From a virus: DNA of 64,000 bases. The stretch lies in the IMG/VR virus record IMGVR_UViG_3300047323_000304, positions 96,001 through 160,000 of that record; one strand, given 5' to 3'. Below the pieces are notes generated by a model. That model saw only the letters and a program-made list of their open reading frames with translations, did no database searches and was not told the origin of the DNA. The position numbers were made by a program, and so were the translations under genes. Shown one piece after another: positions 1-38,183 of the stretch. The stretch's first letter is position 1; each line of letters starts with the position of its first letter.

Positions 1-816
1 ACTTAAATTTTGAATATATTTTATTTGAATAGGAGAAAGAGCCCTCCCACCTAAAGCTAAAAAATTTCTCTTACCCATTGAATCAAGTTTCATTACACTT
101 TTTTGACTTTCCACTAAATATATTGTATTACCACATAAGTTATAATAGTTTTGAGAATATCCAAACAAAGTCATTTTTTTTGAAAACTCAATTATAGGAT
201 AATATTTTAATTCATCATAATAATCATAATCTTGACCATTATATCTTCCAGTAACTCCTACCAACTCTCCTTCAAATGAAAATTCTGGGATTGTTATCCT
301 ATGTGTATTCCAATCGTATCCTATTTTGAATTTCATTTGAGTTTTTAAATTTATTCCATCTTTTTGAAATAATTCATTGCCTTTTATTTCATAGTTATTT
401 AACGTTTCAATTGGATAGGTTTTTATATTATAATTTAAACCATTGTCATTCTTTTTGTATTTATCAAACAACCCTCCAAAAATTTTAGGTTTTTCTATTT
501 TTTTAAATGTACCTTTTAAATTTAAAAAATCACAAACATATTTAAATGATTTAAAAAATTCTTCTTCACTGTATCCTAATTTATGTCTTACTGCTAAAAA
601 CAAATCACCCTCTAGTGAGTTTGAATAATCAGAATAGGATATATTGTTTTCTGATAGCTTAAACTTAATCCCTGTTGGATTCCACCCATTGTCATAAGCA
701 CATCTTATTTCTTCTCTTGTTCTATATTTTATTTCCGAAAAATCTAACTGTTCTAATAATTCTATTAACTTTTCTTGATTGTTAAATAAATAATGTTTTA
801 TTTCTAACGCATTCAA
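1..816 (-). CDS. DNA primase (DnaG-like TOPRIM), 3' end runs off the window; missing from ORF track
   Basis: TTG start at 816 after a GGTGGT RBS. The frame translated at both ends reads MNALEIKHYLFNNQ... and ...YLVESQKSVMKLDSMGKRNFLALGG (TOPRIM-like). It lies directly downstream of the helicase. Confidence 0.8.
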   Translation of the reverse strand, partial: MNALEIKHYLFNNQEKLIELLEQLDFSEIKYRTREEIRCAYDNGWNPTGIKFKLSENNISYSDYSNSLEGDLFLAVRHKLGYSEEEFFKSFKYVCDFLNLKGTFKKIEKPKIFGGLFDKYKKNDNGLNYNIKTYPIETLNNYEIKGNELFQKDGINLKTQMKFKIGYDWNTHRITIPEFSFEGELVGVTGRYNGQDYDYYDELKYYPIIEFSKKMTLFGYSQNYYNLCGNTIYLVESQKSVMKLDSMGKRNFLALGGRALSPIQIKYIQNLS

Positions 817-2423: not shown

Positions 2424-2972
2424 TTAAAAGAAATTTGTAAAATCTGTTACGTCATTATTTTTGAATTGGTAATTATCCATTTCTATTTGTTTATCTTCTA
2501 TTTCTTCAATCTTTACTCTTTTAATTTGTTCCTTATTTTTTTTATATTTTATTATTTTTGATATATCTGCTATATTTGCTCTAATTACAGTAAATATGTA
2601 TCTGATCTTATTAAATTCCTTGTCTATACCTTTCATATACATATAATCACTTATATTAGTTTTATATTCTTTAAAACATTCTAGTATTTCTTCATATGTA
2701 TATATAGCTATAAATGGTGATAATTCTTTAGTTATTAAATTGAAATTAAGACATTCATAGCCTAAAATTTCATTTATTATGTTGAATATTCCCTCCTTTT
2801 CTTGTTTAGTTTTCTCTTTTTCATAAATATAGCTATCGTATTCTATCGAGTCACAATAATAATTTCTTTTCTTAGTCCCTGTTTTTGTCTCTGATATTAC
2901 ACAATAGGCTTCACTTTGTAAAATTTTATTCCCACAAATCTTGCAGGTAACTTGTCTTGCCATTTGATACAC
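2424..2972 (-). CDS. Zn-ribbon protein of the replication module (possible helicase loader)
   Basis: CKIC...YYC motif; located between the ATPase and helicase genes. Confidence 0.5.
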   Translation of the reverse strand: MYQMARQVTCKICGNKILQSEAYCVISETKTGTKKRNYYCDSIEYDSYIYEKEKTKQEKEGIFNIINEILGYECLNFNLITKELSPFIAIYTYEEILECFKEYKTNISDYMYMKGIDKEFNKIRYIFTVIRANIADISKIIKYKKNKEQIKRVKIEEIEDKQIEMDNYQFKNNDVTDFTNFF

Positions 2973-3054
2973 TTCCTTTTTATAAATTTTAATAGAAACA
3001 ATCAGCTTATAATTGCTTTTATTAAAATAGGGAGAAGAATTTCCCCCTAAATAT

Positions 3055-4245
3055 TTAATTAAGTTTTTGTAATATTTCTTCCATACCTTCTGTTAAGTTG
3101 TTTTCAACATCACTTATTTTTTCAATATTATACTTTTGCATTATCTCTTTAATATCAGCCTTCAATTCTTTTGAAGTATCTTTCCATTTTGAAGTTACTA
3201 TTTTTTGTATTTCTTTATTTCTTTCAACATTTATCTTGTTTGTTTCTTCTTCACTTGTTTTTATTTTATTTAATTCTTCCTTGATTTCATTTTTTCTATC
3301 TACTTCAGCTTTTTCTTTTAATTGTTCAAAATCTTCATCTGAAACATTCTTTCTCATAGAAGCTTTAATTCCATCTTCTATCGCTTGTATAAATCCACTA
3401 GCAGATAGTTCGACCTTTTCTACTATATCCTTAAATCTTGTTCCAGCTTTAACAAAATTACTTTCTCTGAAATATATGTATCTCTTTGTTCCATTTAATA
3501 CACCATCTTTTACATTCTTATCTATTTGTATAGTAGCAATGACGTCTGCTTTATGAGCAATAATATTATCAAGTCTGCTATCTAAGTTAGATGTAAGCAT
3601 GTTGTAAGACTCATCATCTGTCATTCCTTTTTCTTTAATAGTTTTAACTTTTGTATGTGATATTACTACAGGAGTTAATCCACAACTTCTCAATCTATAA
3701 AGTTGTTCATCTACTATTTCAGCTAATTTATCAAATCCCCCACTAAATCCTCCAAAAGCACTGTTTATACTTGATACTTTTTTAGTTGGGTTAGCATCAT
3801 TATGAAGCTTTACTACATAATTTTTTGCTATTTCACAAAGTTCGTCATATGTATCTATACCAATTATTTCAATTCCATTTTCTTCTCTCCCATCAACTAA
3901 ATCATCGATTAATTTAACAAATTCTTCCCAACCATATCCACTCTTAATTATTTTTCCTTCATTGTCTTTGATTTTAGTAATTATAATTCCATTCTTATCT
4001 TTTATATCTTGAATTACTTCATATTGAATATCAGGTAATGTTTTAAATCCATCTTCTCTCCCACATGATATTAATAATCCTTTTGATTGATCTCCATTAA
4101 ATATTTCATTTATTAAATCATAGAAAAGTGTAGTTTTTCCTGATTTTTCAACACCTCTTAAATAGTAGTAATATCCTAATATACTTGCCTTAACTTCATT
4201 TTTCTTAAAACTTCTTCTTGCCATAATTATATTTCCTTCTTTCAT
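3055..4245 (-). CDS. AAA-family ATP-binding protein (Sak4/YorG-like)
   Basis: GVEKSGKTT Walker A, IGIDTYDEL Walker B and ISHTK motif. Confidence 0.75.
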   Translation of the reverse strand: MKEGNIIMARRSFKKNEVKASILGYYYYLRGVEKSGKTTLFYDLINEIFNGDQSKGLLISCGREDGFKTLPDIQYEVIQDIKDKNGIIITKIKDNEGKIIKSGYGWEEFVKLIDDLVDGREENGIEIIGIDTYDELCEIAKNYVVKLHNDANPTKKVSSINSAFGGFSGGFDKLAEIVDEQLYRLRSCGLTPVVISHTKVKTIKEKGMTDDESYNMLTSNLDSRLDNIIAHKADVIATIQIDKNVKDGVLNGTKRYIYFRESNFVKAGTRFKDIVEKVELSASGFIQAIEDGIKASMRKNVSDEDFEQLKEKAEVDRKNEIKEELNKIKTSEEETNKINVERNKEIQKIVTSKWKDTSKELKADIKEIMQKYNIEKISDVENNLTEGMEEILQKLN

Positions 4246-8327: not shown

Positions 8328-10379
8328 TTAAAATTTTATTTTTAGTGTTCTTTCTGTTTGACCTTTAACCTTGACAATTAATTCATTTCTCTTTGTTGAA
8401 CTAAATCCTAATCCTGATAACTGATCTTCTACATCTTCTACTCTCATTTTACTACCTAGTGCCTCAAAAACTCTTTTATGTTTCATTAAATCTTCTTTCA
8501 AGAATTCGTTGTAAAATCCATTAGGTTGTTCTGGATTTACACAATCCTTTAACATAAACATATAATGTCTATGACCGATTCCATCTTGTTCATTCCAATA
8601 GTTAGGTGAATAACACATAACTGAAACTGGTACAAAATTATTTGTTTTTAAGTTCCATACGTCTTTTGATGATACACTTGATGGTAATTTTTCTTTAATT
8701 GTAAATCCTGTATTTTTATTAAAATTAACTTCTGCTACTTGAACATTTTCACCTTGTCTTAATTCTTTATTGTACTCAAAAGAGAATACTTGCCCATCAA
8801 ATTCAATTTCTGCTTTAAATCCTGTTCTTCCACCTCTGTTAGTAAAGTTATGAACAAAGAATTTATATGTTCCTTCTTCCATTCTATCTCTATCAGTCCA
8901 TGTTATATTTTCAACTGCTGGAACATTTCTATCTGGATTAATTATATCCACGTCTAATTGTCCTGTAGTATATCTATTTACTTTACTACTATAATAAATT
9001 TCATTTCCACTTGGTTCATAACAATGAGCGTCTAAATCATTTCCATCATATTCATTATCATTCCATTGAATTGAAAATCTTAATACCCCTTCTACATTTC
9101 CACCTGCTGATTTAACTCTGTCTTTCATTGAACTATCTGTTATATTTCCTGAATAAGCCCAACTAAAGTTGTTATCCCACTTAAACATTGTTTTACTATT
9201 TATATCTTTAGGTGCTATAAGTGATACCATATTACCACTATGTTTATTTTCTAAGTATACTTCAATTTCTTTAGCTGTTGGTAATACACCATTTACAAAA
9301 CTATCTATTGAAATTTCTTCAACTTTTGAGAATTTTTTAGGATTAGTAGATACTTCACTTAGCATTTCATCAAATACATTTGCATTAGATATTCTCTTTG
9401 CAGAATCCTTGTTAGAGAATAATATATTATTTACTGTTATATCATCTAATGTTGCATATCTTCTGCCTAATGAGTCCATATAACCAAGTTCTTGTATAGT
9501 TTTTTGTGCATCTTCTAGCATTTTCTTTGTAAATATTGCTTTTGGACGTTTATAATTGCTAGGAGCTACAATGACTTCATATTTTTTTACTGCTGTATCT
9601 AAATCCATTCCTTCGCTTACATTTATAAGTAGTGTTCCTATAGAATGATTTCTTATTCTTCCAATTGCCCCACCAGCTTTTACTGATTGTTCCCATGCAT
9701 AAATTTCTTTTTCTTCTTGTGTTTGTAATTTATCATAAACTTTCTTGTATTTAAGGAATTCAGTTAAAACACCTTTCCATTCTTCACCTTTATATAAAGT
9801 GTTTGAAGATATTAATTCTAATATAGTTAAAATTGATTCTTCTGTAATTTCATCTAAAGACCTTTTGAATACATTTCTTGTATCTCTATATCCACCTTTT
9901 ATATCACCTTCTGATCTCGCACTTGAATCAACAAATCTGTCTGGTAATTCTAAGTAGAAATGTTGCCATTCCATTATGTTTCCATTTGCTAATTGTTCAA
10001 AGTTTTTATCTGTTCCAATCTTTTTCATTTTACTAACATAAATATCTGTAATAGCTTTTGATTTAACATATTCAGATAATGCATCTGCCACAGGTTGGAA
10101 AGTTGTACTATTTGTTTCAAAATCCCATATTGTAGTAACCGTATTGTCTTTAACAACAACTGCATTTCCAAGTGTTTTTATAAATTGTCTGCAACAACTA
10201 CAATCATATTCTCTTCTTTCTCTGTAAAGTTCATTAGTACCTTCTGGGAAGCTATCCAAGTATAAGTTCCATAATTCGTCTTTGTCTACATTCACCTCAA
10301 ATAACTTGTCTGCATCTTTTGATACCTTTGCAAAATTTTCTTGTAATCCTTTTTTAAATTGTTTGAATTGATCTTCCAT
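8328..10379 (-). CDS. Large phage protein with a YfaP/DUF2135-like C-terminal domain
   Basis: RFSIQW...DLDAHCYEP...LDVDIINP...VENITW motif series and N-terminal DCSCC. Confidence 0.6.
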
Positions 10380-34766: not shown

Positions 34767-35555
34767 TTACCCAACAATATTTATTGGTATCCAATATTCT
34801 CCTTTCTCTATTAGCCACAAATAACTTATATATCCATCAACTATAATATATTTCTTTCCTCGTTGTTCTACTTCTATCGCTTTTTCTATGCCATTATTTG
34901 CTTTATATTTATTATATTTGTTTAATCTTTTACTCTCTTTGGGTCTACTATTAACCATTACATGTGGGATTATTAACTTATTATATTGAATATACTTCTC
35001 CATATCTATTGGTTGCTTAGTTAATATTTTCCTAGCATCAACATCTTTAGGCTTCTTCCTTTTCTTAGACTTATTATTCATTCCATTTAATTCATTAGTT
35101 AACATTCTAGCTGTTTTTCTTGCTAATTTATCTACAACATTATTATGTATGCTATATTCTGAGGGATTTTTAGAGTTATGAGCTTTTATCCATTTAAGTG
35201 ATATTTTCAATCCTACCGTTTTTATTAAACCAAGAACCTCATCGTATATTTCCCTAACTTTAGCTTTAATCTTTCCTTCAGTTATAAAATCATTTATAAT
35301 ATTTACTACACTTTGACAATCAGATAAAATAATAACTTGTACATCTTCTAAATCATTTTTTAAGTTGTTTAAATGTAATAATAATTGTTTTATAGCTTCA
35401 ATCTCCATTAAATTGCTTGTTGTTTCTATTTGCGTACCACAATTAATATAACTATCCTCATTTATAATTATTTTATAAGCCCATGCACCAACTCCAACTT
35501 TTTTATATTTTTCTTCTTGCAGACAACTTCCATCAGTAAAACATTTGATTTCCAT
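34767..35555 (-). CDS. rnhA: Ribonuclease H with C-terminal extension
   Basis: CFTDGSC, TSNLMEIEA, ILSDCQSV, WIKAH and NNVVDKLA. Confidence 0.85.
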   Translation of the reverse strand: MEIKCFTDGSCLQEEKYKKVGVGAWAYKIIINEDSYINCGTQIETTSNLMEIEAIKQLLLHLNNLKNDLEDVQVIILSDCQSVVNIINDFITEGKIKAKVREIYDEVLGLIKTVGLKISLKWIKAHNSKNPSEYSIHNNVVDKLARKTARMLTNELNGMNNKSKKRKKPKDVDARKILTKQPIDMEKYIQYNKLIIPHVMVNSRPKESKRLNKYNKYKANNGIEKAIEVEQRGKKYIIVDGYISYLWLIEKGEYWIPINIVG

Positions 35556-35760: not shown

Positions 35761-36471
35761 TTAATCATCCTTTAACTTTCTATTTTTCTTGAATTCATTA
35801 TTATACCATTTAAGAAAATTCCCATGTAATTTTAGTTCTGCTTCTTCTCTTGCTTTGGTAGCTTCTTCTTTTGTAAAATGTCTACCTAAATTATAAGTTT
35901 TCTTTTGAAATTGAATGGTAGCCCTATATTTACCTTTTTCAAAAATAACACCTCTAATACCTGTTTTACTATTTTTAAAAGCTTTATTATTATTTATAGT
36001 ATCCATTCTTGTATTAGCAATATATTTATTATTTATAAATTTAGAGATGTTTTTAGGGGCATTTCCTTTTGCAATTTCACTATTTCTACAACCACAACTC
36101 AAGGTATTTCCTGTGGTTAAATTAGTTAAACTTACATATACATCATCTTTACCACAATCACATTTGCATAGCCACATTATATGACCATTATCTCGTTTAC
36201 TAGTAGATTTTATGGCAGTAAGTTTACCAAATTTTTGTCCAGAAATATTTCTTGCTTTTAACTTTCCTATATTGGCTAATTTCTCATCACGCAAACAACC
36301 GCAACTTAAAGTTTGCCCTGCATTAAGTGTGTTACCTGCAACAAAAGTTTCATTTCCACATATACATTTACATTTCCATATAACTGAACCTTGTGATGAT
36401 CTTTTTACTGTTGGTTCAGTAGCAGTTAATTTAGCAAATGTTTTTCCAGTTAAATCTTTAATTCTACCCAA
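35761..36471 (-). CDS. AP2-domain putative homing endonuclease
   Basis: Repeated DLTGKTFAKL...WKCKCICG...SCGC modules; C-terminal TGIRGV...YRATI...LGRHFTKEEA..AR. Confidence 0.8.
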   Translation of the reverse strand: MGRIKDLTGKTFAKLTATEPTVKRSSQGSVIWKCKCICGNETFVAGNTLNAGQTLSCGCLRDEKLANIGKLKARNISGQKFGKLTAIKSTSKRDNGHIMWLCKCDCGKDDVYVSLTNLTTGNTLSCGCRNSEIAKGNAPKNISKFINNKYIANTRMDTINNNKAFKNSKTGIRGVIFEKGKYRATIQFQKKTYNLGRHFTKEEATKAREEAELKLHGNFLKWYNNEFKKNRKLKDD

Positions 36472-36577
36472 AGTAATACTCCTTATGATAAATAAACTTT
36501 ATTCTTATTGTTAATTGCTATTATACCATATTATTTAATTTTATAAATGACAAAAATTTATTTTGATTAATAAAACC

Positions 36578-36624
36578 TGTGGATAACTTTGATTACATTT
36601 AAAAATTATGTTGACTTATCCACA
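36578..36624. promoter_or_regulatory. Two perfect DnaA boxes in inverted orientation
   Basis: TGTGGATAA at 36578-36586 and TTATCCACA at 36616-36624, in AT-rich intergenic DNA. Confidence 0.6.
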
Positions 36625-36659
36625 ATTTTTCATTAAAATAAATACATAGGAAAAATTCA

Positions 36660-36765
36660 AAAATAAAAAGTCCTTTCAACACTTATTCAGAATCCCCATT
36701 CTGGACAAGCTAGGAACTTAAATGGTACGTCAATACCAAGAAAGTAACGAAAGAACTTATTTAAT
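36660..36765 (-). ncRNA. Candidate small structured RNA (~100 nt)
   Basis: Minus-strand TTTACA/TATAAT promoter (36800-36772), 10-bp closing stem with a G-U pair on this strand, two internal hairpins and a U-rich tail; no start codon or RBS. Confidence 0.45.
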
Positions 36766-37084
36766 ATCTTAATTATATATTATAATTTTATCATTGTAAA
36801 TATATAATTTAAGAAACATAAGTAAGATTTTTACAAGCTTTATTGGTATTAAATACTGATAAAGCTTTTTATTTTTTTGTAAATTTGGGTAAATAAAAAA
36901 AGAAAGTTACTATCAATAACTTTCCAACATTTAACCTACCTATAAAAAACTTTATATAGAATTATTATTCTTATATACTTCCGTTTAATATAAGTAAAAT
37001 TTATCTCGCAAATTTATTTTACCACAGATTTTTTAAAAATGGAAGTGTTTAGGCTTAATAAAGTCAACCTTTTTTAGAGTAATA

Positions 37085-37710
37085 TTGAGGATTCCCATAT
37101 TTACAGGGATGAGCAGTACAAATATACTTTAATTAATAGATAAATATACAATTATTCTAAAATACTAAAGGTGGCTTCAAAGTGTTGAAAAGGCTAATCA
37201 CATTAAAATAACCTGCCGTAAAAGGTGCTACGTCCTCACGCATTGAAAAAAGTATGCAAAGAGCGAGGTATAATTCTATACTTTTTGACTATATACAAGA
37301 AGTATAAATCCCCTGTGTTCATAGTAAGGTGAAACTCCGTACAGGGTTATCAAAAATGTGAGGCGATAAGAATGACCAACTCTTATCATTTTGGAAGTCC
37401 TAACGTAGAAATACGTGGCAATATCATAGTAATACTTTTATAGTAGTTGTGTTAGGGTAGGAATGACATAATTAAAACTATGATTCTTATATAGATGTGA
37501 AGATACAATTCCCGAAAACAAAGCATAATATTCACATAATATCTCTTATTGCTTCTCAGCATTAAGGGGTTTTATGTTCAAACGTGTCCACCCTCCTCAA
37601 AGCATATCCTTTGGCATATATCAAAGTCAAGTAGTAAATTCAATTAAGTATGCAAGTTTGATTATAACTAGAGTGATAACTCAAAGTAAGCAATACACTC
37701 TAGTTATAAT
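37085..37710 (+). ncRNA. Candidate large ornate ncRNA (ROOL/GOLLD-class architecture)
   Basis: ORF-free and visibly richer in G+C than its surroundings. Many helices, a long-range closing helix (37085-91 with 37594-600), a GNRA tetraloop and G-U pairs that favour the + strand. Confidence 0.6.
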
Positions 37711-37716
37711 ATTTAA

Positions 37717-38037
37717 TTAGGATATCTTAGCAGAAACTTCAACATTTAAATTATATTTATTGATTAAATATTTAGCACATTCTAAATCAGTTTCAAATAC
37801 TTCAAAATCATTACCATCTGAACTACATTCTTTAGTTTTTGGATTTCTATAATCATATCCTGCTATACCATCATTATCAATATAATAAAAAGTTTCATAT
37901 TCTGCATTTTCTTTTTCACAAATGTTTTCTTCTAAATCTTGATACACAATCCTTGTCACATCATAAATTTTGTTTTTAGTTACACCTTGTACCATTTCAT
38001 TTAATATTAATATTTTCATAATAAATCTCTCCTCCAT
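37717..38037 (-). CDS. hypothetical protein
   Basis: ORF downstream of a sigma-A promoter. Confidence 0.6.
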   Translation of the reverse strand: MEERFIMKILILNEMVQGVTKNKIYDVTRIVYQDLEENICEKENAEYETFYYIDNDGIAGYDYRNPKTKECSSDGNDFEVFETDLECAKYLINKYNLNVEVSAKIS

Positions 38038-38183
38038 ATTTTATTTTATGTATTCCTTGTTGATATAACTATCATATCATTTATAATTTTAGTTGTCAAT
38101 ATTATTTTTAATTTATTTATCTATTACTAAAATGTGAATTTTATTAACTGTTAAAAAGGAACAAAATCAATTGTTCCTCATAA

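Follow-up and report, generated by a model that had tools for sequence, protein, structure and literature searches.

The window analysed here, a stretch of 64,000 nucleotides (nt), comprises bases 96,001-160,000 of the 193.9-kb IMG/VR viral contig IMGVR_UViG_3300047323_000304, which is estimated to be 78% complete. Its GC content is about 24% and all credible genes lie on the minus strand. Between them sits a 1.24-kb gap at 36472-37716 that contains no open reading frame (ORF) of at least 60 amino acids (aa) under translation table 11, in agreement with a preliminary description of this locus, made from the sequence alone, which had proposed an ORF-free, highly structured RNA at 37085-37710 on the strand opposite the genes. 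The analysis presented below indicates that the gap most likely encodes a large folded plus-strand RNA of an uncatalogued kind. We further propose, at roughly even confidence, that the segment at 36.58-37.72 kb is a self-contained replication or maintenance module of plasmid type, carried by an AT-rich clostridial phage and having a plus-strand RNA of ~650 nt as its main product.

Inspection of the sequence reveals every one of the pairings listed in the preliminary description where they were placed, and most of them belong to the minimum-free-energy structure that RNAfold predicts for 37085-37710. That structure uses the closing helix 37085-91/37594-600, the 11-bp hairpin 37277-87/37296-306, the helices 37311-17/37340-46, 37365-71/37381-87 and 37423-30/37477-84, the ACGTA-GAAA-TACGT hairpin at 37403-16 and the 15-bp stem 37661-75/37696-710, whereas the pairings 37234-40/37357-63 and 37495-501/37531-37 are alternatives that it does not use. 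The fold also beats shuffled controls. A first estimate of z = -5.4, derived from 20 shuffles only, shrank to -3.4 on the plus strand when 100 dinucleotide shuffles were used, with -2.2 on the minus strand, and the core at 37166-37600 gives -3.0 and -2.2, respectively. Taken alone, this exceeds chance without being overwhelming. GC content rises to 0.33-0.37 at 37200-37600 versus 0.20-0.25 in the surroundings. A recoded gene was considered for the gap and rejected: neither genetic code 4 nor reading TAG as glutamine opens it, and reading TAA as glutamine yields frames of at most 189 aa with about 12 recoded stops, as is typical of AT-rich DNA.

The RNA could not be assigned to any catalogued family. 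A cmscan of the whole window at the Rfam gathering score returned no hits, a search of 36400-38100 at E up to 10 returned snoRNA and miRNA noise only (none better than E of about 6), and seven homologous loci likewise gave no hits against Rfam. The suggestion that the region is a ROOL- or GOLLD-like RNA was not borne out, since no Rfam covariance model matches and the context is also different.

A weak BLAST match led to pCBI, a plasmid of Clostridium botulinum 202F. Using blastn with a short word, window 36598-37059 aligns with pCBI 2707-3119 at 66% identity (E = 7e-22), and the matching pCBI stretch is an unannotated gap after the ParA operon. The same region is present in L134, a 39.7-kb IMG/VR contig, and rescoring the alignment of the left half gave E = 8.9e-42 against pCBI and 2.8e-47 against L134. 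All three share an identical order of elements: DnaA boxes, a promoter-like site (P1), a leader, a convergent promoter, a terminator-like hairpin, a second hairpin and the motif GGAAGTGTWTAGGCTTAAT. The structured region first delimited is real, but the unit to which it belongs is larger, at about 36,578-37,715. Homology with pCBI begins ~500 nt upstream, and the originally proposed 5' end at 37085 falls about 45 nt inside the unit because the conserved 5' motif lies at 37041-59. The plus-strand assignment, on the other hand, holds: the module is oriented as in its homologs, its GNRA loops read GNRA on the plus strand only, and conserved G-U pairs in a related subfamily (described below) agree with it.

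The BLAST alignment with pCBI ends downstream of GGAAGTGTWTAGGCTTAAT. Beyond that point, the right halves of the two loci share five collinear words of at least 11 nt, namely ACCTTTTTTAG, ATAGATAAATA, AAGATACAATTC, AAACGTGTCCAC and GTAAGCAATACACT. Dinucleotide shuffles average 0.26 such words and never exceed 2, 0 of 300 shuffles reach the observed number, and the reverse strand gives 0. Because these words beat the shuffles, the ~650-nt GC-richer region is homologous to pCBI too. Conserved islands within fast-diverging sequence are what structured RNAs typically show.

The left half of the module opens with an inverted pair of perfect DnaA boxes on the plus-strand segment 36578-36625, TGTGGATAA at 36578-86 and TTATCCACA at 36616-24, which are the only two perfect boxes in the gap. 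The second box falls between the hexamers of the plus-strand site P1 (TTGACT-17 nt-TAAAAT, 36611-36639), for which a leader start near 36646 is predicted. P1 is conserved in pCBI and L134 as TAGACT or TTTACT followed by TATAAT, and the same arrangement of DnaA boxes recurs in pCBI, L134 and L318, a 16-kb IMG/VR element discussed below. The plus-strand leader at 36646-36830 contains conserved hairpins, is homologous by blastn to the leaders of pCBI and L134, and is likely the target of an antisense RNA. A strong convergent promoter-like site on the minus strand at 36772-36800 (TTTACA-17 nt-TATAAT, 11/12 matches) would yield such a short antisense RNA. It is followed on the plus strand by a terminator- or attenuator-like hairpin of 15 pairs and a T-run at 36835-36877, conserved in pCBI and L134. 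A hairpin equivalent to it lies ahead of a rep-like ORF in L318 and, in the plasmid pZ27_4, ahead of the large RNA. A second conserved plus-strand hairpin, GAAAGTTA...TAACTTTC, was read from the alignment at 36893-36918. Its counterpart stems are GAAGGTAA...TTACCTTC in pCBI and GAAGGTTA...TAACCTTC in L134, and the stem changes, as read by eye, are compensatory.

The large RNA region begins on the plus strand with the conserved segment 37041-37078, where alignment with relatives identifies GGAAGTGTTTAGGCTTAAT followed by ACCTTTTTTAG. The motif GGAAGTGTWTAGGCTTAAT at 37041-59 is common to the window, pCBI and L134. Since a conserved, weak promoter-like stretch (TTTATT-15 nt-TAAAAA) lies directly upstream, the region of 37041 is the probable 5' end of the RNA. 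The core, at 37085-37600 on the plus strand, is predicted to be a multi-helix domain closed by the pairs 37085-91/37594-600 and 37170-74/37588-92. Within it, the predicted plus-strand hairpin GCAT/TGAAAAAAGT/ATGC at 37240-37257 has a loop that resembles the AGCCAATG-N-AAAAAGT loop of hairpin 1 in p21-D-5a, pZ27_4, L134 and the pOS1_3 subfamily of plasmids. We tentatively regard it as the counterpart of hairpin 1, although the register differs and the covariance model R2 described below misses it. The 11-bp plus-strand hairpin at 37277-37306 matches by eye the position of a 10-13 bp hairpin in the relatives, whose stem sequences all differ, and the helices that correspond to it by eye in the pOS1_3 subfamily, helices 2 and 3, covary there. 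The predicted GNRA-capped plus-strand hairpin at 37403-37416 has as its equivalents GTC-GCAA-GAC in pCBI and GTTA-GAAA-TAAC in p21-D-5a. Comparison with relatives further points to a plus-strand hairpin ATGTGA...TCACAT at 37495-37537, whose loop opens with the conserved AAGATACAATTC; the stems around this loop differ, being AATGTTACT/AGTAATATT in pCBI and AGTAATACT/AGTATTATT in p21-D-5a. At 37580-37600 (plus strand), fold and comparison together identify AAACGTGTCCAC, a 3' motif that is conserved, as well as the C-rich strand CCACCCTCC, by which long-range helices are closed. An analogous strand, C-rich and on the 3' side, forms part of helix 5 in the pOS1_3 subfamily. A 15-bp terminal hairpin at 37661-37710, whose loop includes the conserved GTAAGCAATACACT, adjoins the stop of the convergent gene at 37717-38037 and probably marks the RNA's 3' end or serves as its terminator. 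One further candidate, a long-range helix joining the 5' motif (AAGTGT..GCTTA) to the 3' motif (TAAGC..ACACTT), has the same conserved sequence in the window as in pCBI, yet L134 breaks it without compensation, and it was set aside as unsupported.

The family extends well beyond these loci. The 3' half of the large region of pCBI aligns over 288 nt (5e-23) with the C. perfringens plasmid p21-D-5a, where the region sits after a ParM/ParR operon. At this locus (L148:2290-3300), an insertion sequence with its transposase on the minus strand and a C-terminal fragment of a resolvase lie between the ParM/ParR operon and the module. The leader and 5' end of p21-D-5a in turn match small C. perfringens plasmids, the large regions of which also match plasmids of C. 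baratii and C. estertheticum. The pOS1_3 type occurs in plasmids of C. chauvoei, C. beijerinckii (pNF1), C. tyrobutyricum, C. gasigenes and Paraclostridium sordellii. A 133-nt piece that matches the 5' part of the large region of pZ27_4 at 87% identity recurs in more than 100 pCW3-like C. perfringens plasmids; in pCPF5603 (NC_007773.1, L402:2700-4961) this piece lies in a 2.26-kb gap with no listed gene. The window and pCBI belong to this wider family through the shared module layout and the collinear conserved islands. Pattern searches added little. A scan of genome contigs for the 5' motif gave 56 chance matches, the 5' motif combined with CTTTTTTAG gave 0 matches in metagenomes, and the DnaA-box pair matched upwards of 120 loci in each collection, most of them unrelated, with L318 alone informative. 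Our literature search, which did not extend to the older plasmid literature, found no Rep-less replicon and no large conserved RNA of Clostridium plasmids.

To characterize the structure, the pOS1_3-type region from nine plasmids of six species was assembled as alignment A5, which has a mean column identity of 73%. RNAalifold predicts 84 pairs in 11 helices for A5, with compensatory changes on both sides at 32 of the 84, and 95.8% of the cells in predicted pairs form a standard pair. Pairing, compensatory pairs and covariation score all stay below the observed values in each of 500 shuffles. When the 3' partners are shifted by 1-3 columns, only about 40-45% of the cells still pair and 2-9 compensatory pairs are left. 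The subfamily contains invariant G-U pairs, and the plus strand folds 10-25 kcal/mol better than the minus strand in every member tested; for these two reasons the helices represent an RNA of leader orientation rather than DNA cruciforms. Among the elements of the structure are one hairpin whose 16-nt loop, AGCCRAYGCAAWAAGT, is conserved, another that is two-tiered and has a C/U-rich loop, a third of 24 bp, and a long-range helix to which the C-rich 3' strand contributes. Whatever its function, the pOS1_3 subfamily constitutes a large RNA family that is new and covaries strongly. Covariance model R2, built on the first 100 nt of this subfamily and searched with filters off, finds the predicted places in pZ27_4 (E = 0.057), p21-D-5a (hairpin 1, E = 0.37) and L134 (E = 1.5). 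That the locus represents a new RNA class is supported for the family and probable for the window copy.

To understand what such an RNA might do, we inspected the plasmids that carry it. The smallest have few ORFs. A 3,584-bp C. perfringens plasmid encodes only MazF-like, 202-aa, CopG-like and 85-aa proteins, and the RNA lies within its 1.2-1.3 kb ORF-free stretch; a 3,941-bp C. chauvoei plasmid has ORFs of 168 aa at most; and a 6.48-kb C. perfringens plasmid carries a resolvase and small ORFs. No Rep domain was found in the ORFs of these three carriers, which do include small helix-turn-helix (HTH) or ribbon-helix-helix (RHH) ORFs. It is plausible, on sequence grounds, that the module is the only replicon of some of these tiny plasmids. 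Two observations on the records themselves may be added. NZ_CP148637.1 (L153), of 12,964 bp, consists of two perfect copies, joined head to tail, of a 6,482-bp plasmid, and the 3.9-kb C. chauvoei plasmid contains an unlisted 168-aa ORF that runs across the record start, downstream of the RNA (L395:3759-3941 + 1-324, plus strand). The N-terminal HTH match of this ORF is weak and sub-threshold, and its product may belong to the replicon as a small DNA-binding factor. In larger carriers, the module directly follows partition genes, those of ParA in pCBI and of ParM in p21-D-5a.

The L318 element provides a counterpart in which a protein-coding gene occupies the same position. At 1638-2950 on its minus strand, L318 has an inverted pair of DnaA boxes, a promoter, a leader hairpin (with a CGGCAA loop) and a terminator-like hairpin, arranged as in the window. 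This layout precedes a 313-aa HTH_36 ORF with three tandem internal 27-nt repeats, which looks like a replication initiator with iterons inside its gene. By layout, the large RNA regions of the family appear to occupy the place of this rep-like ORF. They are not themselves decayed rep genes, an idea that was rejected because tblastn with the L318 protein finds no trace of it in the family. Another link to replication comes from RNase H-related genes, which lie near the module in two unrelated carriers, the window phage and pNF1. In pNF1 (C. beijerinckii DSM 6423, L398:1236-1637, plus strand), the ORF that immediately follows the RNA codes for a protein of 133 aa that has the N-terminal RNA-DNA hybrid-binding domain of RNase H1 (PF01693, 6e-12) and lacks a catalytic domain.

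In the phage, the module is inverted relative to all neighbouring window genes. On its left it abuts an HNH homing-type endonuclease gene (35761-36471, minus strand; phrog_374, 3e-48), and two genes away lies an RNase H gene (34767-35555, minus strand; PF00075, 3.9e-15) that may work with the module. On its right, a 106-aa ORF with no function assigned (37717-38037, minus strand) converges with the module, and a ParB-like gene lies 1.5 kb away on that same side. Both flanking reading frames are complete, in that the RNase H gene has its full N-terminus and the 106-aa ORF closes at its own stop. It is possible that the module came in as a mobile cassette or beside one. No gene follows the window RNA copy on its strand. 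Searches for partners gave little: a ParM search of the phage contig found no match and was equally silent in 14 of 14 control genomes, tblastn of the window RNase H against the family loci found no match, and no tRNA genes were found in the window.

The phage itself has no close relatives in the collections compared, apart from what is shared through a single 683-aa protein (window 8328-10379, minus strand; phrog_1735, function unknown). This protein is 70% identical to its counterpart in Bastille-like Bacillus phages and shows 60-78% identity across Bacillus, Clostridioides and many metagenomic phages, which otherwise have no neighbouring genes in common with the IMG/VR contig; its gene is either highly mobile or a highly conserved single gene. 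The 45 viral contigs that share it were rejected as true kin because they lack the RNase H and ParB-like neighbours. When the 626-nt region was compared by BLAST with phages and with these 45 contigs, only chance matches resulted, and neither the 106-aa ORF nor the RNase H protein has close kin among viral contigs.

Considered together, a replication role is the best-supported explanation for the sequence features of the module. We base this proposal on the Rep-less tiny carriers, the position beside partition genes, the L318 layout, the antisense-attenuation layout and the RNase H links; transcription, antisense control, the replication role and the priming mechanism are all inferred from sequence. 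In the model that we favour, the promoter overlapped by a pair of DnaA boxes would start a leader transcript, and a short antisense RNA from the convergent promoter would act with the terminator hairpin to limit read-through, amounting to copy-number control such as pIP501, pT181 and ColE1 display. The weak second promoter may contribute as well. The large RNA itself, at about 37041-37715, would take the role that a Rep protein plays in sister elements, serving as a pre-primer or R-loop former that is processed by RNase H-type enzymes, as in ColE1. Alternatively, it may be a scaffold that recruits host initiation proteins. In the phage, the module would constitute a plasmid-type maintenance replicon. 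A broader version of this proposal can be offered only tentatively, and we think it somewhat more apt to fail than to hold: that a widespread but undescribed class of large RNA, about 350-650 nt in length, is the initiator of Rep-less replicons in Clostridium and Paraclostridium plasmids and phage-plasmids, that it is an independently arisen Gram-positive counterpart of ColE1 RNA II, that it gives a ~200-kb phage plasmid-like persistence, and that the same principle may account for the Rep-less origin of the Bacillus plasmid pLS20.

Several observations weigh against the replication proposal, or against extending it to the window. R2, even with filters off, misses both the window and pCBI, the nhmmer profile of A5 gives no match in the window module, and a further covariance model, R1, for which pCBI and p21-D-5a served as seeds, recovers nothing beyond those two. 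The window is tied to the proven structure via a chain of pairwise similarities and by-eye correspondences, those between its hairpins and the relatives' being visual readings rather than a statistical test; no near relative of its RNA was found from which covariation in its helices could be read. Its fold score is moderate, and the minus strand also folds better than its controls. DnaA boxes are confined to the window/pCBI/L134 type and absent from C. perfringens-type members, and a search of the available 78% of the phage genome revealed no ParA. Among the carriers, pCPCPN17a_2 has a DnaC-like ATPase and a REP_ORF2-G2P protein of the rolling-circle replication type, and the small RHH or HTH proteins downstream of the RNA in most plasmids could be unrecognised initiators, the 168-aa ORF being an example. 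Some of these points lend themselves to the view that the window copy is a decaying or inactive remnant captured by the phage, with helices that arise partly by chance in AT-rich DNA. The window copy is the most divergent member of the family, missed by R1, R2 and the nhmmer profile alike; its z-score is just -3.4, with -2.2 on the other strand; it lacks the hairpin that in pCBI and L134 comes first after the 5' motif; and the module is inverted next to an HNH gene. We nonetheless judge a remnant improbable, given that the promoter, both DnaA boxes, the attenuator and the five collinear islands are intact over 1.1 kb, that the raised GC content and the GNRA loop are kept, and that hairpins stand where the relatives have hairpins.

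A structured RNA with a non-replication job, whether as leader of a downstream DNA-binding gene, as a stability or incompatibility determinant or as an anti-defence RNA, is unlikely in our estimation. Under this explanation the tiny plasmids would replicate via DNA sites elsewhere in their ORF-free regions or via small proteins, and indeed these regions (1.3-2.2 kb) exceed the RNA, a same-strand RHH (CopG- or NikA-like) or HTH gene follows the RNA in most plasmids, and Rep-type proteins occur in some carriers. The window copy, however, has no such gene downstream, the leader, antisense promoter and attenuator together with the rep-like ORF of L318 fit a replication-control layout, and RNase H-related genes lie nearby in two unrelated carriers. 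The region might instead act purely at the DNA level, as an origin or control region of DnaA boxes, an unwinding element, protein sites and cruciforms that needs no functional RNA. Perfect DnaA boxes in ORF-free DNA beside par genes in plasmids are what such an origin would offer, and the published description of oripLS20 is of an origin that spans 1.1 kb, has no Rep and contains DnaA boxes (PMC8557374). The many conserved G-U pairs of the pOS1_3 subfamily and its 10-25 kcal/mol preference for the plus-strand fold are unlike a cruciform, however, the GNRA loops are strand-specific and most family members are without DnaA boxes, which leaves a DNA-only origin distinctly improbable. Last, the region could be a divergent member of the ROOL, GOLLD, OLE or raiA families, or a group I or II intron associated with the neighbouring HNH gene. 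Size, ornate fold, phage context and the adjacent HNH gene all invite that comparison. It is nevertheless highly improbable, as neither the window nor the seven homologous loci have an Rfam match, including in the local search at E up to 10, no host gene is visibly split, the HNH gene and the RNA lie on different strands, and the homologs are plasmid modules without HNH genes.

Should the replication proposal be correct, many Clostridium plasmids, from 3.6-kb cryptic plasmids to C. botulinum phage-plasmids, would replicate by means of an uncatalogued RNA, which would explain the persistence of plasmids that have no Rep gene. It would suggest a plasmid-prophage lifestyle for the phage, provide a handle for plasmid typing and incompatibility, supply a new minimal replicon for Clostridium genetics and offer a testable model for the pLS20-type origin. 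Independent of its function, the pOS1_3 subfamily is suited to an Rfam entry and to structural work.

Comparison with known systems helps to place the module. ROOL and GOLLD RNAs resemble it in length (500-800 nt), in an ornate multi-helix fold, in their occurrence in Firmicutes phages and mobile elements, and in that their biochemical role is unknown. The module differs from them in giving no covariance-model match, in the lack of window tRNA genes, and in a plasmid replication-control layout that is mainly plasmid-borne. A group I or II intron was rejected, as no intron model matches, the flanking genes are complete and the HNH gene lies on the strand opposite the RNA. Plasmids such as pIP501 (RNAIII), pAMbeta1, pT181 and the RepA_N plasmids (pSK41) control their rep genes by antisense-RNA transcriptional attenuation. 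The likeness lies in the succession of promoter, leader opposed by an antisense promoter, terminator hairpin and replication determinant, an arrangement that L318 follows exactly; the difference is that in the window and its family the determinant after the attenuator is an ORF-free structured RNA, not a rep ORF.

The Rep-less plasmids ColE1 and pMB1 use a folded RNA of ~550 nt, RNA II, as a positive factor that is processed by RNase H and opposed by the convergent antisense RNA I near its 5' end. What the module would share with this system is the Rep-less logic, a folded RNA and a putative convergent antisense promoter, and an RNase H gene lies nearby. In contrast to ColE1, the window and the seven homologous loci have no sequence or Rfam relationship to RNAI, the hosts are Gram-positive Clostridia, and the antisense unit of the clostridial module is placed in a separate leader with a terminator hairpin, an attenuation-like arrangement in which primer formation would be a presumed step.

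A close parallel in layout is oripLS20, the Rep-less 1.1-kb theta replicon of the Bacillus subtilis plasmid pLS20 (Meijer et al. 1995, cited in PMC8557374). It adjoins a partition operon, has a consensus DnaA box, and its mechanism has been unexplained since 1995 (PMC8557374). Both are ORF-free over about 1.1-1.3 kb, have no initiator gene and carry a DnaA box directly beside a partition operon, with many dyad symmetries and a GC-rich, structured-looking core. In the window, this corresponds to the 1.24-kb gap with two perfect DnaA boxes and a ParB-like gene 1.5 kb off, and in pCBI and p21-D-5a to a module placed after the ParA and ParM operons. The two differ in that oripLS20 has been reported only in Bacillus, that no RNA is proposed for it in PMC8557374, and that blastn at word size 7 between the ori regions of pLS20 and pBatNRS213 and the family gives no meaningful alignment. 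The pLS20 origin (NC_015148.1, L156:3030-3460) has a GC-rich, hairpin-dense core with a GNRA-capped stem, a long terminal hairpin and no Rfam match. This core has the look of a structured RNA and might be an analogue of the clostridial one. Set against these systems, the clostridial RNA class is new to catalogues and is built into what would be an RNA-dependent, Rep-less replicon with antisense control.

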